Origin: Chthonomonadales bacterium
Lineage (GTDB): Bacteria; Armatimonadota; Chthonomonadetes; Chthonomonadales; Chthonomonadaceae
Direction: 5' to 3'
Assembly (NCBI GenBank): GCA_038217285.1
Contig: JBBQPO010000151.1
Coordinates: forward strand, 1-15,177
DNA: 15,177 nucleotides
This document shows positions 1,280 to 13,628 of this stretch, in pieces. Both the position numbers and the translations under genes were made by a program. Position 1 is the stretch's first letter; each line of letters begins with the position of its first letter. The notes below the pieces were generated by a model. The model had not been told where the DNA came from, searched no databases, and was given only the letters and a program-made list of their open reading frames with translations.

Positions 1280-2673
1280 GGCGCACTTTGGTTATCGAAC
1301 CGCTCCCGTGCCTTGTCCAGTTGAACACGGACAGCGCTGGGAGCGGTTCCGCCCTGTGAGGTTCTGGCGGCGACACAGGACTGCACTGTCAGGACGGCCA
1401 GGGCTGCCTTCGTATTCTGCTCCAAGAGGGGCGAGAAAGCGGCCAGGGTCGCCCCGTCCAGATCTTCCAGCCCGATTTTCCGCTCCGTACAGTGCTGAAC
1501 GACCTTGCCGACGATGTGATGCGCTTCGCGAAACGGAAGGCCCTGCCGCACCAGATAGTCGGCAAGATCTGTTGCCGTCGAGAAGTCGCCTTGTGTGGCC
1601 GCGAGCATGCGGTCTGCGCGGAATCGGGCCGTCTCCAGGGTCTTACGCATCGCGGGGATCACGAGGAAGAGCGTGTCGATGGCGTCGAACAGCGGCTCCT
1701 TATCCTCCTGCATATCCTTGTTGTAGGCGAGAGGCAGACCCTTCATCAGGGTCAGCAGGCTCATCAGGTCGCCGTAGACCCGGCCGGTCTTGCCTCGGGC
1801 CAGTTCCGCGACATCCGGGTTCTTCTTCTGCGGCATGATGCTGCTGCCCGTCGTCACCGAGTCGTGCAGCGTGATCCAGCCGAACTCCGGCGCGTTCCAG
1901 AGGATGATCTCTTCCGCCAGTCGGGAGAGGTGCATCATGGTAATGGCGGCAAAGGCCAGGAACTCGATGGCGAAGTCCCGATCCGAGACTGCGTCGAGGC
2001 TGTTGGGAATTACGGAGGCGAAGTCGAGGGCCCTGCCGACCTGCTCACGATCGATGGGAAATCCGGTTCCTGCGAGCGCGCCTGCGCCGAGCGGCAGGCG
2101 GTTGATGCGGCGGCGGGTATCGGCGAGGCGTTCCCGGTCCCGATCCAGCATCCAGAAATAGGCGAGCAGATGATGCGCCAGTACGACCGGCTGTGCGTGC
2201 TGGAGATGCGTGAAACCGGGCAGGACTGTCTCCGTCTCGTTTTCGGCATGATCGAGCAGCGCCTGCTGCAGCGTCGCCAGTTCCAGATCGGTCCGGTCAC
2301 AGACTTCGCGCAGATAGAGGCGAATATCGGTCGCGATCTGATCGTTGCGGCTGCGGGCTGTGTGGAGCCTTCCGGCCACCGGGCCTAAGCGCTCCCGCAA
2401 GAGCCCTTCGACGGCGGTATGCACGTCTTCCGCGTCGGGAGGCAGTTCGACCGTTCCGGCAGCAAGATCCGTTTCCAGCGCCTTCAGCCCGGCAACAAGC
2501 TCGTCCGCCTTGGCCTGGGAGACGATCCCGGTCGTGCCGAGCATGGCGGCATGCGCGATGCTGCCCTGAATATCGTGTCGCCAGAGCCGCGCATCGAAAC
2601 GGAGCGAGTTGTTCAGCCGCTCGATGAGCGCATCCGTCGGCTCGTCAAAATGCCCGCCCCAGAGCTTAAGCAT
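1273..2673 (-). CDS. argH: Argininosuccinate lyase
   Basis: N-terminal KLWGG.F, HTARSRNDQ, GFTHLQHAQP, the fumarate-lyase signature GSSIMPQKKNPD and YNKDMQEDKE. Confidence 0.98.
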   Translation of the reverse strand: MLKLWGGHFDEPTDALIERLNNSLRFDARLWRHDIQGSIAHAAMLGTTGIVSQAKADELVAGLKALETDLAAGTVELPPDAEDVHTAVEGLLRERLGPVAGRLHTARSRNDQIATDIRLYLREVCDRTDLELATLQQALLDHAENETETVLPGFTHLQHAQPVVLAHHLLAYFWMLDRDRERLADTRRRINRLPLGAGALAGTGFPIDREQVGRALDFASVIPNSLDAVSDRDFAIEFLAFAAITMMHLSRLAEEIILWNAPEFGWITLHDSVTTGSSIMPQKKNPDVAELARGKTGRVYGDLMSLLTLMKGLPLAYNKDMQEDKEPLFDAIDTLFLVIPAMRKTLETARFRADRMLAATQGDFSTATDLADYLVRQGLPFREAHHIVGKVVQHCTERKIGLEDLDGATLAAFSPLLEQNTKAALAVLTVQSCVAARTSQGGTAPSAVRVQLDKARERFDNQSAPQ

Positions 2674-3952
2674 CGGTGCCCTGCTTCGTCTCGCCGCCGA
2701 TCAGCATCGGCTCGTCCCGCGCGCCGCCGAGAATTTTGCCCTGCTGTTTGAGCTGCCAGTAGAGTTTGGACTGCATTCCGTGCGTCTTCACCATGCCGAG
2801 CGAGTCGGCCTGGTTGAAGGTTTTGCTGTCGAACGAGGCCAGATCTTCATTGTAGAGCGCCGCTTCACTGCTTCGGCCGATCACCACGGCGCTGCCCTTG
2901 TTGAGCCGCATGATGACGGTGCCGGTGACCCTGTGTTGGACGCGGTTGATGAACGCCTCCAGATCCTCGCGCAGCGGGTCGAGCCACAGACCCTTGTAGG
3001 CCAGTTCACCCCACTCCCGATCTACCAAGGACTTGAACTTGAGCTCTCCTGCTGTGCAGACCAGGGCCTCCAGCGCCCGGTGCGCCGCGATCAGCACCAC
3101 AGCTGCGGGGCACTCATAGTTTTCGCGCACTTTTAGCCCCATCATGCGGTCTTCCATGATGTCGATGCGTCCTACCCCGTGTTCGCCGGCGATCTTGTTC
3201 AGTTCCACCACGAGTTCGAGGCTCGCGAGGCGCTCGCCGTCGAGGGAGACCGGAACGCCGTTCTCAAAGCCGATGTGGAGGGTGCGCGGCGCATCCGGGC
3301 AGTCGGCAATACTGCGCGTCCAGTGGAAGATCTCTTCCGGCGGCGCGTAGTCGGGCTCTTCGAGGCGTCCGCCCTCGATGCTGCGTCCCCAGACGTTCTC
3401 ATCCACGCTCCAGATCTTGTCCTTCGTCTGCGGGATGTCGAGGCCGTGCGCGTTGGCATATTCGATCTCTTCGCTGCGCGTCCAGGTGTCGCGCGTGCCG
3501 TCGGGCAGGCGACGACCTTCGCGCATCGGCGCGATGATCTCGGCGTCCGGCAGGAGCGTCCGCATGATATACTCGATGCGGAACTGATCGTTGCCCTTGC
3601 CGGTGCAGCCGTGCCCGAACGCGTTCACGCCGAGCTCCTTGGCTTTTTCGACCGCCTTCAACGCGATCAGCGGTCGGGCGATGCTGGTTGAGATCGGATA
3701 GCCTTGATAGTCGCCATTGGCGCGCACGGCAGGCCAGCAGAAATGCTCGACGAACATCTCCTTTGCGTCCACCGTGTAGTGCTCGGTCCCGAGCCGCACG
3801 GCGCGCTCCTCGGCGAGCTTGATGTCGTCAGCAGGCTGCCCGACATCGACAGTCACCGTGATTACGTGGTCAAATCCGTACTCCTCCCGCATCAGCGGTA
3901 TGCAGACGGAGGTATCCAGTCCGCCGGAGTACACCAGAACGATCTTCTTCAT
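2666..3952 (-). CDS. argG: Argininosuccinate synthase
   Basis: YSGGLDTS PP-loop, HGCTGKGNDQ.R and K.RE.YE.P motifs. Overlaps the argH start by 8 nt. Confidence 0.98.
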   Translation of the reverse strand: MKKIVLVYSGGLDTSVCIPLMREEYGFDHVITVTVDVGQPADDIKLAEERAVRLGTEHYTVDAKEMFVEHFCWPAVRANGDYQGYPISTSIARPLIALKAVEKAKELGVNAFGHGCTGKGNDQFRIEYIMRTLLPDAEIIAPMREGRRLPDGTRDTWTRSEEIEYANAHGLDIPQTKDKIWSVDENVWGRSIEGGRLEEPDYAPPEEIFHWTRSIADCPDAPRTLHIGFENGVPVSLDGERLASLELVVELNKIAGEHGVGRIDIMEDRMMGLKVRENYECPAAVVLIAAHRALEALVCTAGELKFKSLVDREWGELAYKGLWLDPLREDLEAFINRVQHRVTGTVIMRLNKGSAVVIGRSSEAALYNEDLASFDSKTFNQADSLGMVKTHGMQSKLYWQLKQQGKILGGARDEPMLIGGETKQGTDA

Positions 3953-3988: not shown

Positions 3989-5473
3989 TCAGAGCCCGAC
4001 CATCAGGGCGACGAGCGCTTTCTGCGTATGGAGCCTATTTTCCGCCTGATTCAGGATCACCTCTTTGTGGGCCTCCATCACCTCCGTGGTGATCTCTTCC
4101 TCACGATGGGCCGGCAGACAGTGCAGAACGATCGCGTCCGGTTTGGCGTGCGCCATCAGCGCGGCGTTGACCTGATAGGGCGCGAAGATCGCCAACCGCT
4201 GCGCCTTCTCCTCTTCCTGTCCCATGCTGGTCCAGACGTCGGTATAGACGACATCGGCGTCCTTCACAGCCACAACGGGGTCTGTCACGACCGCGATTAT
4301 GGCTCCTGTCCCATTCTCCCCTGCCCCGATTCGCTGCGCCTCGGCCACGTACTCCGCCGCAGGTTCGTAACCGGTCGGGCAGGCGGCAGTTAAGTTTACC
4401 CCGACTTTGGCGCAGGCAAGCAGCAGCGCATGCAGCACATTGTTCCCATCCCCGACGTAGGCCAATTTGAGGTGATTGCCAAGCTTGCCTTTGGATTCAA
4501 TGATCGTGAGCAGATCGGCAAACGCCTGGAGAGGATGCTCCCGGTCGCTCAACGCGTTGATCACAGGAACCGTTGCGGCTGCCGCCAACTCCTCCACCGT
4601 TTCGTGCTTGAAGGTCCGCGCCGCGATGGCATCGACCCATCGCGACAGTCCCCCTGCCACGTCCGACACTGACTCCCGTACTCCTAATCCGACATCGCCA
4701 GGAGCAAGATAAATCGCATGGCCTGCCAGATGCGCCATACCCGCCTCGAAACTCACACGCGTTCGCAGCGAAGGCTTTTCGAACAGCAGGGCCAGCGTTT
4801 TCGGATGCGCAAAGTAGACGAACTTATCGTTTCGCTTTAGCGCCTTAAACCGGGCGGCAACTCCCAGCACTGCCATCACCTGTTCCGACGAGACGTCGAA
4901 CAGCGAAACGAGCGAGCGACCGCGCCATTTATCCATATCATCCTGGATCATGGATTTCAAGACCAATTCGCCTGCTGCATGCGATGCAGCCTCAGCACCG
5001 GCGGGTTGCCGCACACCCTCGCGTATCGAACTTCCGGCATCGCCGTCCTGCAGCGCCATAACCTCACGCCGAGTCCTCTCCAGCTCCACGCCGAGTTTCG
5101 CCAGCACACGTCCTGCCAGACCCTCGCCCTCGCGGATCAGGCCGAGCAGAATGTGCTCCGTTCCGATATAGTTGTTGCTCAGTTGTCGCGCTTCGTCGTA
5201 AGCCAGATCGATGATGCGCTTGGCGCGAGGCGTGAGCTGCATATCCTGGCCTATGCGTCCGTCTCCACGTGCCACTTGACGCTCGATCTCTGTGCGAATG
5301 CGGCCTAGAGAGATGCCCATTCCATCCAAAATACGAGCGGCCACGCTATCGTTCTCGCGTACCAGTCCGAGGAGCAGATGTTCGGTGGAGACATAGTTCT
5401 CCCCAAGCCTTCCGGCCTCTTCCTGGGCGAAGAATACGACGCGCCGTGCTCTCTCTGTAAATCGTTGCCACAT
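3989..5473 (-). CDS. argF: Fusion protein: ClpC-type N-terminal domain (two Clp_N repeats, aa ~1-143), linker, ornithine carbamoyltransferase (aa ~183-494)
   Basis: Single uninterrupted ORF with SD GGAGG upstream. The N-terminus has RFTERAR, STEHLLLGL, LTPRAK and GTEHILLGLIREGEG (Clp_N x2). The C-terminus has FEKPSLRTRVSFE, HPLQAFAD, DVWTSMGQE, HCLP and QAENRLH (OTC). Confidence 0.95.
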   Translation of the reverse strand: MWQRFTERARRVVFFAQEEAGRLGENYVSTEHLLLGLVRENDSVAARILDGMGISLGRIRTEIERQVARGDGRIGQDMQLTPRAKRIIDLAYDEARQLSNNYIGTEHILLGLIREGEGLAGRVLAKLGVELERTRREVMALQDGDAGSSIREGVRQPAGAEAASHAAGELVLKSMIQDDMDKWRGRSLVSLFDVSSEQVMAVLGVAARFKALKRNDKFVYFAHPKTLALLFEKPSLRTRVSFEAGMAHLAGHAIYLAPGDVGLGVRESVSDVAGGLSRWVDAIAARTFKHETVEELAAAATVPVINALSDREHPLQAFADLLTIIESKGKLGNHLKLAYVGDGNNVLHALLLACAKVGVNLTAACPTGYEPAAEYVAEAQRIGAGENGTGAIIAVVTDPVVAVKDADVVYTDVWTSMGQEEEKAQRLAIFAPYQVNAALMAHAKPDAIVLHCLPAHREEEITTEVMEAHKEVILNQAENRLHTQKALVALMVGL

Positions 5474-5561
5474 GGTTCCTGTCCTCCGTCCTGTCGTCAG
5501 CGTCGCGGCCCACCGTGCTTCAGAACACGACTAAGTAGTCGGTCATAGTTCCTTCGTACTT

Positions 5562-5674
5562 TTCCCGGCAATGAATTGCCGTTCTGAGAGGGTAAACCCG
5601 CCTTCGCGGGTTGGTTGCATTCAGTCCGCGAAGGCGGACTTGCCGTTTCAGCGCGGGGTTTCAACCCCGTGAAC
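5562..5674. repeat. 113-bp REP-doublet (REPIN-like) palindromic element, copy 1
   Basis: Four hairpins: CGGCAAT/ATTGCCG, AACCCGC/GCGGGTT, AGTCCGC/GCGGACT and CGGGGTT/AACCCCG. By hand alignment it is 98/113 identical, without gaps, to the reverse complement of 13516-13628. Confidence 0.9.
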
Positions 5675-5693
5675 GCAATCTACGAACAAACTA

Positions 5694-6938
5694 TCAGCCA
5701 CTATTAAGCGCCTGTTCAATAGTTGTCACGACTCGATCGCAGTCGGCATTGGTGACGACGAGCGGTGGGACGAAACGCAGGACGCTGTCGCTGGTCGCAT
5801 TGGCGACGATGCCGGCTTCCATCAGATATTTATGAACCGCCTTCGCGTCCGGTGTGCTGAGCTGTAAGCCGACCATTAGCCCACGTCCTCGCACCTCTTT
5901 GATCCGATCCGGCAACGCGTTCTGCAACTCCTGCAGGCGCGCCTTGAAGTAGCCGCCGACTTCGGCGGCGCGCTCCATCAAATGCTCCTCCTCCATCACG
6001 TCCAGCGTGGCGAGCGCGGCGGCGCAGGCGAGCGGTTGTCCGGCGAAGGTCGATCCGTGGTCGCCGGGAACGAGTGTGTTCGCAGCCGAACCCCTGGCGA
6101 GGCAGGCGCCCATCGGAAAGCCGTCGGCGATCCCTTTCGCCAGGGTGACGATGTCGCCCTGCACTCCGACGCACTGACTGGCGAGAAAATGGCCGGTACG
6201 GCCCATGCCGCACTGAATCTCGTCGAGGATCAACAGAACTTCAGCCTCATCACATAGGGCGCGCACGCCTGCCAGAAACTCGGGAGTCGCGGGATTGATG
6301 CCGCTTTCGCCCTGCAACGGCTCGATCATGACCGCGCAGGTCTTCTCCGTTATCAGTTCGTCCAGCGCCGCCAGGTCGTTGAGGGGCGCGTAGTGAAAGC
6401 CGGGAACCAGCGGCGCGAACGGGGCCTGATACTTCGGCTGCGCGGTCGCCGAGACCGCTCCCATCGTTCGGCCATGAAACGAGCCTGTAAACGTGATGAT
6501 CTCGAAGCAGTCCACGCCGCGCTTCTGCTTGCCCCACTTCCGCGCGATCTTCAGCGCGGCCTCGTTCGCCTCCGCACCGGAGTTGCAGAAGAACACCTTG
6601 TCCATATCCGCCAGTTTGCACAGTCGTTCCGCCAGTTTGGCTGCCAGCGGATTATGAAAGAGATTGCTGATGTGCATGAGCCGGTGCGCCTGTTCCGCGA
6701 TGGCTCCCGCCACCCTGGGATGGCAGTGCCCAACCCCGACCACGGCGATGCCCGATAGGAAATCGAGATACTCACGCCCCTCACTGTCCCACAGACGCGC
6801 TCCTTCCCCGCGCACGAACACGACAGGCTGACGGGCGTACGTTCCCATGATATAGTCACGGTCCAGCGCCATGATCGTTTCGGCGGCATTGGGCAGGGCC
6901 AGGAGGGCATCCTCTTCTTCCAGGAGGTAGGTACTCAT
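5694..6938 (-). CDS. argD: Acetylornithine aminotransferase (class III PLP-dependent)
   Basis: FFCNSGAEANEAALK, SFHGRT, EPLQGESG, LILDEIQCGMGRTG and the PLP lysine in TLAKG, plus arg operon context. Confidence 0.95.
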   Translation of the reverse strand: MSTYLLEEEDALLALPNAAETIMALDRDYIMGTYARQPVVFVRGEGARLWDSEGREYLDFLSGIAVVGVGHCHPRVAGAIAEQAHRLMHISNLFHNPLAAKLAERLCKLADMDKVFFCNSGAEANEAALKIARKWGKQKRGVDCFEIITFTGSFHGRTMGAVSATAQPKYQAPFAPLVPGFHYAPLNDLAALDELITEKTCAVMIEPLQGESGINPATPEFLAGVRALCDEAEVLLILDEIQCGMGRTGHFLASQCVGVQGDIVTLAKGIADGFPMGACLARGSAANTLVPGDHGSTFAGQPLACAAALATLDVMEEEHLMERAAEVGGYFKARLQELQNALPDRIKEVRGRGLMVGLQLSTPDAKAVHKYLMEAGIVANATSDSVLRFVPPLVVTNADCDRVVTTIEQALNSG

Positions 6939-7004: not shown

Positions 7005-9002
7005 TCAGTGATCGATGTAGTTTTTCGACACGCCAAGCTCCTCGGGCGCGTGCAGGCGCAGCATCTTCATCGCGATGTCGTGCGGCACATGGGCGGCGGT
7101 AGCCAGCGAGACGACGACCATCACGGTGATCGAAACGGGAACGCCCCAGATCGCGGGCTGCTCCATCAGAGTGCGAATCTGCGGACTGACCTCCCACAAA
7201 AGCCACTTCTTGTCGAGCGCCATCGAACAGACGATCGCCGTCAGCGACAGCAAGCCCCCTGTCAGCATTCCGGCAGCAGCGCCGTGGCGGGTCAAACCAC
7301 GCCACCAAGCGCCGAGCAGAAGCAACGGGAAGTAGGACGCCGCTGCGATGGCGAAAGCCCACCCGACCATCATGGCGATGTCGAAGGACTGTACCAGCAG
7401 TCCGAGCAGCATCGAAATGACGCCACACACGATGGCGGCGATCTTGAAGGCCTTCAGGCGGTCGCCCTGGGACGCATTGGGCCGCAGCATCTTGCCATAG
7501 ATATCGTGGGCCAGCGCGCCCGACATGCTGACCAACAGACCGGAGAACGTCGACATAAAGGCCGCGAACGCCCCGGCGCTCGTGATTCCGCTCAAGATCT
7601 GCCCGAGCAGCTTATTGCCGGTCAGCGCCATCGGCAGCTTGATCACGATGCTGTCGGTCGCATTGTTGGCGTAGAGGATCGGAAGAATGTTCCGTCCAAT
7701 GGCACCCCAGATAGGCGGGAAAAAGTAGAAGATTCCGATCAGAACCATAACCCATAGCGTCGTCCGCTTGGCGGATCTTCCATCCGGGTTTGTGTAGAAT
7801 CTCACCAGAATATGAGGCAGCCCCGCCGTACCACAGACCAGCGCCAGGATCAACGAATAGGTATAGAGCAGCGGATGCCCATACTTACCGGTCATGGTCC
7901 CGAACGGCTCGCTCCACTTCTTATTCGACTGCGCGTTCGGGATAGCGGAACCCGCAGCCATTAGTCCGCTCGTCTTCGTCAGAAACTCGATTTTCGGAGA
8001 GTTGCGAAGGTTCGCGCCGTCTTTCATGAGTGGATTTCCGGACTGCGTGGCCTTATAGGGATGAGACTCCAACACCGATCCGGCGGCAATGGTAATCCCG
8101 TGCGGCCATCCGCCCGCCGGACTGGTGGCGACAATCTGATCTCCCTGCAGGACGACCAGCGCACCGGCATGAAGCGGATCTTCGCCCGGTTCGAGTTTGC
8201 GCGCCGCCGAGACCTTATCGAGTTTCGCGCCGTCGGGAAAGGTGATTCGCGTGACGGGGCCCGACGCGAAGGCGACGGCGTTGGCCGGGGCACCGTCCTT
8301 GCCTTTGAAAGCGACCTTCGTCTCGTTCTCCAGTTTGGGCGTAGCCTTCGGGTTATCGACGTTCGCGGCGACGTTTGCAGGGTAGCCGCCATAGACCGAC
8401 ATCAATACGAAGACCGGAACGGAGATCGCGAACACTTTGGCCCAGTACTGAAACGCCTGGACGAAGGTAATGCCTTTCATTCCGCCAAGCGCCACATTGA
8501 ACGTGATGACCGCACCGACGACGACGATTCCAACCGCATAGGGCCAGTTCAGAATCAAGGCCATCGTCAGGCCCGCGCCCTTCATCTGCGGCATCGTATA
8601 GAAAAAACCGATGAAGAGCACGAAGATGACGGCGATCTTGCGGAACGTCGGGCTGTCAAAACGTCCCTCTGCGAAGTCAGGAACGGTGTAGGCGCCAAAA
8701 CGACGCAACGGCCCCGCGATGAAGAGCAGGAGAAGCAGATAACCGGTGGCGTAGCCGACAGGGTACCAGAGCGCGTCATAGCCGTTCTTCATCAACAGCC
8801 CTGCGATACCCATAAAGGAGGCTGCGGAGAGATACTCCCCCGAGATCGCGGAGGCGTTCCAGAAAACGCTGACCGACCGGCCAGCGACGAAGAAGTCGGA
8901 GGCCGATTTCGACATCTTCGTGGCATGGATGCCCAGCCAGACCGTCGCCGCGATGATGAGGATAACAAACGTAAGCGGTATCCACGCGATCCCCTCGGTC
9001 AT
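7005..9002 (-). CDS. Sodium:solute symporter, ActP/cation-acetate-symporter-like, with a large hydrophilic insertion
   Basis: Motifs DFFVAGR, NASAISGEYLSAASFMG, GGMKGITFVQ and GTAGLPHILVRFYT, and many TM segments. Start reassigned to the ATG at 9002 (MTEGIAW), which overlaps the DUF485 stop as ATGA; about 665 aa. Confidence 0.9.
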   Translation of the reverse strand: MTEGIAWIPLTFVILIIAATVWLGIHATKMSKSASDFFVAGRSVSVFWNASAISGEYLSAASFMGIAGLLMKNGYDALWYPVGYATGYLLLLLFIAGPLRRFGAYTVPDFAEGRFDSPTFRKIAVIFVLFIGFFYTMPQMKGAGLTMALILNWPYAVGIVVVGAVITFNVALGGMKGITFVQAFQYWAKVFAISVPVFVLMSVYGGYPANVAANVDNPKATPKLENETKVAFKGKDGAPANAVAFASGPVTRITFPDGAKLDKVSAARKLEPGEDPLHAGALVVLQGDQIVATSPAGGWPHGITIAAGSVLESHPYKATQSGNPLMKDGANLRNSPKIEFLTKTSGLMAAGSAIPNAQSNKKWSEPFGTMTGKYGHPLLYTYSLILALVCGTAGLPHILVRFYTNPDGRSAKRTTLWVMVLIGIFYFFPPIWGAIGRNILPILYANNATDSIVIKLPMALTGNKLLGQILSGITSAGAFAAFMSTFSGLLVSMSGALAHDIYGKMLRPNASQGDRLKAFKIAAIVCGVISMLLGLLVQSFDIAMMVGWAFAIAAASYFPLLLLGAWWRGLTRHGAAAGMLTGGLLSLTAIVCSMALDKKWLLWEVSPQIRTLMEQPAIWGVPVSITVMVVVSLATAAHVPHDIAMKMLRLHAPEELGVSKNYIDH

Positions 9003-9391
9003 TCCATCCCCTCTTCCTGCGGTGCGGTCGTCGTCGCCCCTACAGTGGTAGAAACCGCTGCAGGCAACATCGTACGCCCGATAGCCGTACACTCCGCTTC
9101 GATAGCGTCCGATTTCTGGACGAAGTAGGAGGAGAGAAGCCAGGTCAGGGGAAAGAAGCAGATCCCCAGAATGAGCCAGGTCAGGCTGAACCCGAAGAGA
9201 CGACTGTTCATCAGCGCAGGCTGGCTCTGGTTGAGCCAGGGAAGCGCCAGAAGCGGCAGCAGGAAGAGCGCTGCCACCTGCAGGCTCAATGCGGCTTGCC
9301 GCCGCATGACGACATGCAGGAGCTTCTCCTGTGTTTCTAAGGGTATCAGGCCGGGCGACGTTGTCGCGATGTCAGGAACCGTGTTGCTCAT
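8999..9391 (-). CDS. DUF485 (YjcH-like) small membrane protein, usual partner of ActP-like symporters
   Basis: Two TM helices in 130 aa, SD GAAGGAG upstream, and translational coupling to the symporter in the known DUF485-actP arrangement. Confidence 0.8.
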   Translation of the reverse strand: MSNTVPDIATTSPGLIPLETQEKLLHVVMRRQAALSLQVAALFLLPLLALPWLNQSQPALMNSRLFGFSLTWLILGICFFPLTWLLSSYFVQKSDAIEAECTAIGRTMLPAAVSTTVGATTTAPQEEGME

Positions 9392-11574: not shown

Positions 11575-12114
11575 TCAGCTCGTCTGCTCTTTGTGGGGTT
11601 GAGCGGGGCGTACCGCCGCTCTATACGCGCTGGAACTCTTAATGCGTTCGAGTTGGCGTGTATGATGCCCATAGTGCGAAATTATGGTTGCGAGCCACTC
11701 TTTACCGTTCAGCCTGCCATATTGGAAATGCCAACTGACCTGCTTGGGATTGATGGGTCTGCCCGTCGATTCCGCCAGCCGAAGCAGCGAACCCGCGTGA
11801 TCTTTGCGCACGTCGTCAAAGGATCTCTTCCCGGCTCCGCGATAGAGCGAGCCCGCTTCGTACTGCAGCGAGCGTCCCCGTGTGAAAGCCTCCAGAATAT
11901 TGGCGACTCCATAGTTGACATCGGCCACATGCGCGACCATATCGCGTATACTCTTCGGACAGGAGCCGCGCATCCGAGCGCCCTCTTCGCTGACATCCTC
12001 GAGAAGATTATCAAAGACCCACCCCGCCACGAGACCCTCCTCCAGAAGGGCGTCCCAGTCCTTGGCCCGCACGAGAGGATCGATCAAAATTCGTTTCCGT
12101 ATCAGCTTTAGCAT
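11575..12114 (-). CDS. DinB/YfiT-superfamily protein (putative His-triad metalloprotein)
   Basis: SIRDMVAHVAD and ISHYGHHTRQL match the DinB four-helix-bundle His pattern. SD TAAGGA upstream. Tightly packed between argC (25-nt gap) and argJ (11-nt gap). Confidence 0.75.
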   Translation of the reverse strand: MLKLIRKRILIDPLVRAKDWDALLEEGLVAGWVFDNLLEDVSEEGARMRGSCPKSIRDMVAHVADVNYGVANILEAFTRGRSLQYEAGSLYRGAGKRSFDDVRKDHAGSLLRLAESTGRPINPKQVSWHFQYGRLNGKEWLATIISHYGHHTRQLERIKSSSAYRAAVRPAQPHKEQTS

Positions 12115-13515: not shown

Positions 13516-13628
13516 GTTCACGGGGCTCAAGCCCCGCGCTGAAACGGGAAGTCCGCCGTCGCGGACTCAAAGCCGCGAGTCCGCGAAGGCGGACTTCCCC
13601 TCTCAGAACGGCAATTCATTGCCGGGAA
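13516..13628. repeat. 113-bp REP-doublet (REPIN-like) palindromic element, copy 2 (inverted relative to copy 1)
   Basis: Same four-hairpin architecture as 5562-5674, with compensatory substitutions in hairpins 2 and 4. Confidence 0.9.

Follow-up and report, generated by a model that had tools for sequence, protein, structure and literature searches.

Tandem Clp_N modules without a motor are found in plant ClpT1/T2. Ornithine carbamoyltransferase (OTC) is usually trimeric; in the yeast arginase-OTC 'epiarginase', it is controlled by protein-protein contact rather than by classical allostery. McsB is, to our knowledge, the only writer of phospho-arginine (pArg). The head (N-terminal domain) of ClpC is the docking site of ClpC adaptors, and free pArg acts on it (PMC12583610). 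In mycobacteria, pArg and a pArg-binding ClpC1 are found without a known kinase (PMC13345244, PMC9604228), so that a lack of McsB does not rule out pArg. The oligomeric state of ClpC2 is altered by pArg, and ClpC2 was shown in 2026 to be a pArg-responsive repressor (PMC13345244); the precedent invoked in an earlier note on this DNA, a motor-less Clp_N domain acting as pArg sensor, is confirmed for ClpC2 by the same text. ClpC heads without a motor have only lately begun to be recognised as sensors.

In the window (the whole stretch of DNA analysed, 15,177 nucleotides), such a head is carried by an enzyme of arginine synthesis. A single ORF of the minus strand (3989-5473, 494 aa) includes a Clp_N head, a linker and an OTC; no AAA+ domain is detected in the 494-aa protein with Pfam or NCBIfam. 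This architecture, and its position in the argF slot of the operon, had been described in the earlier note and are borne out by the ORF, Pfam, NCBIfam and the operon order. The features are given below (coordinates, strand, nature; the basis of each is given in brackets).

3989..5473, minus strand: whole Clp_N-OTC gene, 494 aa (ORF translation, Pfam, NCBIfam).
5042..5473, minus strand: ClpC-type N-domain, residues 1-144, two Clp_N repeats (Pfam, PDB match, pLDDT).
5045..5151, minus strand: 107-nt run identical to the resident clpC, putative latest conversion tract, approximately codons 108-143 (sequence comparison).
4982..5041, minus strand: predicted disordered tether, residues 145-164 (pLDDT <50).
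4496..4918, minus strand: OTCace_N, carbamoyl-phosphate-binding domain, residues 186-326 (Pfam).
4004..4471, minus strand: OTCace, ornithine-binding domain, residues 335-490 (Pfam).
5477..5487, minus strand: Shine-Dalgarno-like GGAGGA and AGGA before M1 (sequence).
5694..6938, minus strand: argD, upstream operon neighbour (Pfam, NCBIfam).
2666..3952, minus strand: argG, downstream operon neighbour (Pfam, NCBIfam).

The Clp_N model matches two stretches of the 494-aa protein (117.2 bits; cut-off, 20.7; Pfam). OTCace_N and OTCace are matched over the residues given above with 142.5 and 191.3 bits, respectively (Pfam). The ClpB, ClpK and ClpG models match only the head region (NCBIfam/Pfam), and the two AAA+ modules and the M-domain that characterize the ClpC unfoldase are lacking. 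The argF equivalog TIGR00658 is matched with 372.6 bits (cut-off, 280.85) and NF001986 with 392.3 bits (cut-off, 306; NCBIfam). SxRTR, HPxQ, DxxxSMG and HCLP are taken here to be the catalytic motifs of OTC. SLRTR (S235-R239) and HPxQ (H313-Q316) are invariant in the 54/54 fusions aligned; D412..S416-M-G418 and H451-(C)-L-P454 show little or no variation among these 54 fusions. The gene order on the minus strand is argC, DinB_2, argJ, argB, SSF symporter, argD, Clp_N-argF, argG, argH. The sole other OTCace-family gene of the genome is pyrB (393.9 bits; cut-off, 263), which adjoins pyrC; a second OTC was therefore rejected. The genome is a metagenome bin (completeness, 95.3%; contamination, 0.88%). 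Judged from these scores and motifs, the fusion, which is the only OTC of the genome, is predicted to be a catalytically intact anabolic enzyme; the operon context (argC-J-B-D-F-G-H) and the sole-OTC status argue for an active enzyme. Production of the OTC part alone from an internal start (M175 or M180) was considered: no Shine-Dalgarno sequence precedes M175, and M180 has just a weak AGGA in front of it. The host is an uncultured soil or sediment bacterium of the Armatimonadota. The protein is labelled merely "ornithine carbamoyltransferase" in public databases.

The N-domain aligns without gap over residues 1-147 with solved N-domains of ClpC/ClpC1 (E ~1e-45, PDB search); 4Y0B and 4Y0C, grouped here with the stand-alone multi-Clp_N proteins, are distant matches in the same search. 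Head and resident ClpC N-domain share 94% identity, and AlphaFold2 models the head confidently as eight helices (pLDDT ~90). In this model, pLDDT <50 is confined to residues 145-164, and a helix, also present in the unfused OTCs of the family, is found at residues 160-178; the truly disordered tether would thus be of ~20 residues. The linker of ~40 aa described in the earlier note does exist as a stretch, only half of it being disordered in the prediction. The pTM (0.67) roughly equals the fraction of the protein that the OTC domain makes up, and the head shows no fixed docking on the OTC in the model. In the 95 relatives with a single module, the linker is not conserved and measures 26-188 residues (median, 58). 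A complex prediction for the unfused OTC of G036 and the neighbouring stand-alone Clp_N protein, made with separate alignments, gave a score of 0.00 and a mark of 0.32; it is uninformative both ways.

The homology between the fusion and clpC ends at the domain borders. The dS between the head and its own clpC is 0.37, vs 1.24 for clpC orthologues of the same genus. The longest stretch identical to clpC is of 107 nt (permutation P = 0.00015), and pS within it (5045..5151) is 0.00, vs 0.63 for clpC orthologues. A lower pS is also found in G075, and in a tree of Clp_N modules, those of G166 and G003 cluster with the ClpC of their own genome. This tree (69 rows, 148 columns) has 40/66 inner branches open and is used here only for three own-genome pairings; owing to its poor resolution, it cannot separate a single origin from several. 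These comparisons indicate that gene conversion from the genome's own clpC has recently replaced the head sequence, which makes the head a near-exact copy of the ClpC head. The clpC contig is assigned to the same cell via binning (0.88% contamination), the genome being a metagenome bin. The freshly copied head is tolerated, so that an interface co-adapted with the OTC would be unnecessary. The likeness of the head to ClpC may be a neutral product of conversion and not of selection. Between the same-genus fusions G000 and G087, pN is 0.125 in the head and 0.110 in the OTC domain, pS being at least 0.62 and saturated; the decay of the head, which the earlier note had named as a sign against its reading, is not seen. 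The protein change of fused heads is ~10x faster than that of ClpC heads (pN, 0.125 vs 0.011). The concerted evolution of clpC and argF is a clean example of a domain held as a paralogue mimic by gene conversion.

The eight pocket residues listed in the earlier note (T6, R8, T30, E31, T81, R83, T105, E106) are all present in the head (8/8). The equivalents of T7, E32 and E106 match the residues named in PMC12583610; the other five positions are those of the earlier list. The head of the genome's own ClpB has 6/8 of the same positions; the eight residues, in part generic to the Clp_N repeat, are therefore a poor discriminator of a pArg reader. In the genome-sampled panel of OTC-linked modules, all eight are kept in 5/26, pocket A in 13/26 and pocket B in 7/26; the full set of eight is retained by 26/26 ClpC heads in that panel. 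The head has 8/8 because it was copied very recently from clpC. The eight residues say little about independent selection on pArg binding; the argument drawn from them for pArg is weakened by the ClpB head, the recent copying and the 5/26 modules.

The genome encodes a ClpC of 829 aa (contig C233) and two ClpS. McsB (PF00217) is found in 0/10 genomes of the window's family (G000 and 9 others) vs 102/201 genomes of the phylum sample. McsB missed via an assembly gap was rejected, since synteny shows a clean deletion of mcsB between Aminotran_4 and clpC. Of the genes that the earlier note had proposed to look for, clpC is thus present in the genome of the fusion, and mcsB is absent in 10/10 family genomes. 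This absence likewise weakens the case for pArg in the present genome. Nine of the 39 genomes with a Clp_N-argF link are without McsB. CtsR (PF05848) gives 0 matches in the genome of the fusion; MecA is likewise absent. R4 of the head, presumably the equivalent of the reported McsB target site on ClpC, is 89% conserved.

Among the database relatives listed, Clp_N is found in 120/120 and OTC in 119/120; one head is found in 95, two in 22 and three in 2. Uniqueness of the fusion to this genome, which the earlier note had named as a sign against its reading, is thus not seen: 119/120 of the listed relatives carry both domains, and they come from many assemblies. Genome searches covered Armatimonadota; the scan of genome contigs used the word MWQRFTER, which is specific to the phylum. 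A full-length match is found in 32/201 sampled genomes of the phylum, and ORF mapping adds 4 further fusions and 3 split forms (G036, G127, G001), in which a Clp_N gene lies between argD and argF. The Clp_N family encoded separately beside argF is itself a conserved one; divergent in other respects, it has an invariant pocket B. Named records bearing the fusion belong to Chthonomonadales, Capsulimonadaceae and Armatimonadales, and no fewer than 8 families have kept the reading frame open. The branching of the OTC tree agrees with taxonomy; fused, split and bare forms are intermingled in the family of the window (99* support), and headless OTC loci amount to 7/33 in the OTC-tree panel (e.g. G022, G118, G006). 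The Clp_N-argF link is old in Armatimonadota, vertically inherited and lost in some lineages. It takes two forms: a fusion with 1-3 heads, or a separate Clp_N gene beside argF. In some orthologues, MshEN or T2SSE N-domains are inserted between head and OTC; 'RLG', which we take to be the canonical c-di-GMP motif of MshEN, is not evident in the MshEN insert of P0026 and P0003. P0036 has four Clp_N heads; in G040, of the same phylum, an ECF sigma factor carries a Clp_N domain. The inserts and the sigma-factor protein would suit the logic of a sensor array. In proteins with several heads, the distal ones have degenerated (16/29 without intact pocket). A whole-protein search of the protein atlas gave no usable match. 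No literature linking Clp_N to OTC, and no relevant paper on ClpC and arginine in Armatimonadetes, was found in a search outside which most subscription journals lie.

The leading reading, as in the earlier note, is that a ClpC head may tie OTC to proteostasis. That the head is a tethered mimic of the ClpC head, which would bind the ligands of that head and link OTC to the Clp network, is considered plausible, at somewhat less than even confidence. In its favour stand the conservation of the fusion, its tie to argF, the constraint on the head, the likeness to ClpC, the flexible tether and the ClpC2 precedent; against it count the lack of McsB, CtsR and MecA, the loss of pocket residues in many OTC-linked modules, the possibly neutral origin of the likeness to ClpC, the faster change of fused heads, the headless lineages and the placing of the clpC contig by binning. 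The head would be an autonomous module on a flexible tether and not a rigidly docked allosteric domain. We infer that it would bind whatever the ClpC head binds. Candidate ligands: pArg-type phospho-guanidino groups (the best candidate), ClpS, unfolded segments and the M-domain of ClpC. If trimeric, the OTC would display three heads, in relatives as many as nine. A ligand that tethers, clusters or occludes the OTC would put it under a signal read by ClpC; this effect on the OTC is likewise one that we infer. More tentatively, arginine synthesis may be wired at the protein level to a Clp proteostasis signal, the OTC heads being kept in register by conversion and reading the ligand of ClpC, either pArg-type (possibly written, where McsB is lacking, by a kinase as yet unknown) or the ClpC M-domain. 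In a bolder sub-reading, the pArg pocket would be re-used for carbamoyl phosphate, a near-isostere.

The heads could instead sequester what the ClpC head binds (pArg-marked proteins, ClpS, head-targeting natural cyclic peptides) and so buffer ClpC, the OTC serving as an abundant trimeric carrier. The presence of 1-3 heads per subunit, the conversion that keeps the head identical to its target and the precedent of ClpC2 as an antibiotic sponge (PMC13345244) agree with such a decoy, which is nevertheless unlikely: the link is specific to argF and survives gene splitting, the heads of many fusions share just 26-59% identity with the ClpC head, which would make them poor mimics, and the distal heads are degenerate. 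It is also rather doubtful that the head is a degradation or targeting handle, recruiting ClpC or an adaptor so that ClpCP turns over or remodels the OTC under stress or when arginine is plentiful. The ClpC head is indeed an adaptor docking site (PMC12583610), ClpC and two ClpS genes are present, and the conserved R4 would fit; however, there is no known mechanism for a ClpC-type head acting as degron on a substrate, MecA and McsB are absent, and a head-bound ClpS alone would not deliver the OTC to ClpC.

A functionless passenger, i.e. an old fusion held by inertia and refreshed by neutral conversion, is improbable. Conversion requires no selection, and the heads change rapidly and have disappeared from some lineages, but the frame is open in all these families, pN is far below pS, heads are duplicated to 2-3 copies and the split forms are kept as conserved genes. 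Binding of a phospho-compound of the pathway, e.g. carbamoyl phosphate, as a substrate-holding or feedback site is very improbable. By our own chemical reasoning, carbamoyl phosphate comes close to being an isostere of the N-phospho-guanidinium group of pArg; the link is specific to an enzyme using this substrate, and pocket B is invariant in the stand-alone family. However, the pyrB of the genome, whose product uses the same substrate, is without Clp_N, and the pocket residues vary across many fusions.

The junction, for which a lack of read support would have counted against the reading of the earlier note, is supported by contig pieces from two studies, which run from the OTC through the linker into the end of the N-domain (X1 record 3: 4388-5074, 0 differences; X2 record 10: 4379-5117, 21 differences). 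This architecture recurs across many independent assemblies. An assembly chimera of clpC and argF, suggested by the exact 107-nt match, at which unitigs break and depth rises (5045..5151), is effectively refuted: besides the bridging pieces, 40/429 coding positions differ from clpC, neither flank is related to clpC, the argD-fusion-argG order is repeated in G087 and G075, and a swap within the identical run would still yield a head-OTC fusion. Misassembly was rejected on these grounds.

The locus shows a ClpC head on a core biosynthetic enzyme, a pairing seen phylum-wide as fusions, with several copies of the head and as separate genes. Should the head prove functional, it would be the first proteostasis-type reader domain controlling, or carried by, an enzyme of amino-acid biosynthesis, and would give a tractable handle on pArg pockets in McsB-less bacteria; the good expression expected and the simple OTC assay would make the system tractable. 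The same pocket question stands for mycobacterial ClpC1.

Compared with known systems, the head has the fold family and the length of the ClpC/ClpC1 N-domains of B. subtilis, S. aureus and M. tuberculosis (PDB 5HBN, 6CN8, 7AA4). In ClpC, the head is followed by AAA+ modules, an M-domain and a ClpP loop; in the fusion, the OTC is found in their place. Of the McsB-ClpC pArg system, the genome has the ClpC head and lacks McsB and CtsR. Stand-alone multi-Clp_N proteins are motor-less like the fusion head, but are neither joined to nor located beside a biosynthetic enzyme. Mycobacterial/actinobacterial ClpC2 resembles the fusion in having a motor-less domain like the ClpC head with an unrelated output module. 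Its output is a DNA-binding repressor, whereas that of the fusion is a metabolic enzyme, in which DNA binding and autorepression are not found. The domain of ClpC2 (PMC13345244) is ~40% identical to ClpC1 and keeps one pocket, whereas the fusion head is 94% identical to its own ClpC and probably held alike by conversion; by the same text, ClpC2 works in organisms without a known arginine kinase, and the fusion host is likewise without McsB. With an ordinary anabolic ArgF (TIGR00658), the fusion shares an equivalog score above the cut-off, the catalytic motifs and the operon slot, to which it adds an N-terminal extension of ~180 residues with a foreign domain. The proteins of epiarginase are unrelated to the fusion; the likeness would lie in control of an OTC by a binding partner.

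The gene under study, a Clp_N-OTC fusion, occupies the argF slot of the window:

3989-5473, minus strand: Clp_N-OTC open reading frame of 494 aa (ORF call and translation).

By Pfam, the head of the protein (residues 1-144) has two Clp_N repeats (117.2 bits), and the ornithine carbamoyltransferase (OTC) part has OTCace_N at residues 186-326 and OTCace at residues 335-490; no AAA+ domain is found in the 494 aa. The C-terminal part is an argF equivalog (NCBIfam TIGR00658, 372.6 bits; cut-off, 280.85). Residues 1-147 align without gaps with solved ClpC/ClpC1 N-domains (E ~1e-45). The operon order is argC, DinB_2, argJ, argB, SSF symporter, argD, Clp_N-OTC, argG, argH. Pfam, NCBIfam and operon order thus bear out the earlier note, which had claimed Clp_N, a linker and a full OTC, lacking AAA+, in the argF slot; by these sequence matches, the protein is an ArgF member bearing a genuine ClpC-type N-domain. 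The OTC catalytic motifs are invariant or nearly so in 54 fusions. In the genome holding the window (G000; 6.21 Mb, 459 contigs, 95.3% complete), the fusion is the only OTC found, since the other OTCace-family gene is pyrB, adjoining pyrC; only three genes (ClpC, ClpB and the fusion) encode Clp_N. The symporter (695 aa, window 7005-9092; VC_2705 family match in two stretches) interrupts the arg operon and is also found upstream of argD in G087, a genome of the same genus. A second interruption of the operon, between argC and argJ, is the DinB_2 protein (179 aa, window 11575-12114). In G087, the argH match (fetched locus L013:5253-6401) is divided between two ORFs that overlap out of frame with each other, possibly owing to a frameshift or to an error in sequencing.

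The head of ClpC is extremely conserved across the phylum: identity with the window's head is 78-94% for 25 of 26 panel ClpCs (55% in G003) and only 26-82% for the heads of other fusions. Over 143 codons, the fusion head and its own clpC (on two contigs of one bin, their linkage resting on binning) differ by a pS of 0.29 (dS 0.37), the clpC genes of G000 and G087 by 0.61 (dS 1.24) and the fusion heads of these two genomes by 0.75 (saturated); background pS is 0.62 for the OTC part and 0.59 for the ClpC AAA part. The homology between fusion and clpC starts at the start codon and stops at about codon 143. It includes a 107-nt identical run (permutation P = 0.00015), inside which (codons 107-143) pS is 0.00 against 0.63 for the clpC orthologues, and outside which (codons 1-106) the signal holds, at 0.41 against 0.60. 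From these sequence comparisons, the G000 head is the product of gene conversion, with clpC as donor; as the fusion occupies one and the same slot in G000 and G087, the overwriting followed the species split. G075 gives a similar but fainter signal, and the fused head of G166 and a stand-alone head of G003 pair with their own genome's ClpC in a poorly resolved module tree.

The possibility that the fusion is confined to a single genome is not borne out: in an even phylum sample, a single full-length match occurs in at least 32 of 201 genomes (8 family codes; the window's family contributes only 3 of its 10 genomes) among the matches listed. Clp_N is present in all 120 listed relatives (the best of 8000 scored candidates) and both OTC domains in 119; their named records are Chthonomonadaceae, Chthonomonadales or Armatimonadetes. 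Domain mapping gives one head in 95 of them, two in 22 and three in 2; one other has four heads and no OTC, on a 3.3-kb contig. Head-OTC genes account for 10 of 80 named loci of a species-genome collection (Chthonomonadaceae/Chthonomonadales, Capsulimonadaceae, Armatimonadales). The window and 32 fetched argF loci were mapped by ORF; as this panel was picked mainly for the fusion, its counts are no measure of prevalence. The fused form is found at 23 of the 33 loci (among them 2x head-OTC in G100 and G007, and a fused gene accompanied by a separate head gene in G085, G020, G184, G074 and G145), a split form, with stand-alone Clp_N directly upstream of unfused argF, at 3 (G036, G127, G001) and bare argF at 7. 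The OTC tree agrees with taxonomy and, within the window's family (support 99*), the three forms are intermixed, its three bare ones making up one sub-clade; OTC is therefore vertically inherited and its link to Clp_N is old. Bare forms look like losses of this link, which is specific to argF and persists after gene fission.

Other architectures were encountered. Some OTC orthologues or paralogues carry, between head and OTC, an N-terminal domain of type II/IV secretion ATPases, either MshEN (database relatives P0003, P0026, P0027, P0030) or the initial ~120 positions of T2SSE (P0085, P0095, L067:2497-4347); two such proteins have a plain head-OTC gene on their contig. In G040 (L060:2011-3801), Clp_N forms the C-terminal domain of an ECF sigma factor (regions 2 and 4), which recalls the logic of ClpC2. 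The head of a Clp_N and UVR-motif protein (G003, L058:1576-2478) groups with its own genome's ClpC in the module tree. A stand-alone Clp_N family of ~170 aa, encoded directly upstream of argF (L032:2506-3030, L061:4008-4535, L063:685-1203; 9 database matches), has as invariants HRFVHTEH, two Cys (C-x3-C), LTPR, DTRH replacing GTEH and a Trp-containing basic tail; pocket B (see below) is invariant and pocket A replaced. This family may bind metal or be redox-sensitive.

All eight residues claimed for the two putative phospho-arginine (pArg) pockets, A and B (T6, R8, T30, E31, T81, R83, T105, E106), are present in the fusion translation. Their specificity as a sign of pArg is low: the G000 ClpB head has six of them, so that they are partly generic to the Clp_N repeat, and all eight are kept in just 5 of 26 OTC-fused modules of the panel (pocket A intact in 13, pocket B in 7) versus 26 of 26 ClpC heads. 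When S/T and K/R exchanges are allowed, at least one pocket is kept in 117 of 120 proteins, a query-biased set. The OTC-proximal head is the ClpC-like one (both pockets in 19/25); distal heads are degenerate (neither in 16/29).

A search for the kinase McsB and for ClpC had also been proposed; G000 has clpC and lacks mcsB. PF00217 (McsB) occurs in 102 of 201 phylum genomes, immediately upstream of clpC in those with listed coordinates; the window's family (10 genomes) has no match. Genes in the sister family run Aminotran_4, small ORF, mcsB, clpC, and in G000, G087, G075 and G127 Aminotran_4, clpC; the absence is therefore a true deletion. McsB is present in 30 of 39 genomes with the Clp_N-OTC link (32 with a full-length match, 4 further fusions and 3 split forms), the exceptions being six of the window's family, G001, G074 and G168. 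CtsR and MecA were searched for in G000 and not found; two ClpS genes were. The fusion in G000 belongs to no McsB system. This is compatible with pArg, since mycobacteria, for which no kinase is known, are described as having pArg and a ClpC1 that binds it (PMC13345244; PMC9604228). Immediately before clpC, in the slot occupied by mcsA and mcsB in the sister family, McsB-less members of the window's family carry a stand-alone Clp_N gene (G036, L037:2861-3787, two heads, 308 aa; G022, L044:2378-2950, one head, 190 aa); the Clp_N search of G000 found none there.

The sole OTC of G000 is intact and carries a flexibly tethered, selected near-copy of the ClpC head; the number of heads varies among relatives. 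AlphaFold2, given an alignment of 54 fusions, yields a model with a mean pLDDT of 89.8 (below 50 only at residues 145-164) and a pTM of 0.67, which roughly equals the fraction of the protein taken up by the OTC domain. We read this prediction as a head without fixed position on the OTC. Linkers of 95 single-head relatives have 26-188 residues (median 58), show no conservation and abound in A, S, E and P. In the favoured but tentative reading, the head would be an independent module binding the ligands of ClpC heads and would act on the OTC by tethering, clustering or occlusion; a co-adapted interface would not be involved, because the OTC tolerates a head newly copied from ClpC. The closest working precedent would, by analogy, be ClpC2, whose oligomers are broken by pArg binding according to PMC13345244; PMC12583610 reports that the S. 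aureus ClpC head responds to free pArg at ~0.2 mM, arginine having no effect. That the head is a sponge for ClpC is unlikely, and its use as a degradation handle is equally so. Between G000 and G087, pN of the head is 0.125, close to the 0.110 of the OTC domain and far below pS. Purifying selection thus acts on the head, and the decay of the N-domain that would have told against the note is not borne out. Since the pN of ClpC heads is about tenfold lower (0.011), the fused head has fewer constraints than in ClpC. A head that is a passenger is somewhat less likely still, and a head serving as a carbamoyl-phosphate site is very improbable.

An assembly chimera is excluded with near certainty, because the head differs from clpC at 40 of 429 coding positions, its flanks are unrelated to clpC (28% and 33% identity) and the order argD - fusion - argG is also found in G087 and G075. 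The junction, for which a misassembly check had been advised, is supported by contig pieces from two studies (sets X1 and X2) that run from OTC through the linker into the last part of the head: X1 record 3 (4388-5074, 0 differences) and X2 record 10 (4379-5117, 21 differences). Unitigs break at ~5045-5185, at the run identical to clpC; there, ClpC heads from numerous organisms stack up and raise the depth. A hairpin-rich dispersed repeat of ~110-155 nt, which looks like a REP/MITE-type element, lies in the argD-argF spacer (window 5474-5693), with a second window copy at 13516-13628 and BLAST copies (86-91% identity) on 18 other G000 contigs; in three metagenome runs it makes the depth jump at 5555-5612.

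No description of a Clp_N-OTC fusion was found in literature searches, and databases label the protein only as OTC. It has a ClpC-type N-domain yet is no ClpC, because AAA+ modules are absent. By analogy, it would be most alike in working to the ClpC2-type motor-less Clp_N proteins, from which it differs in that its partner is a metabolic enzyme.
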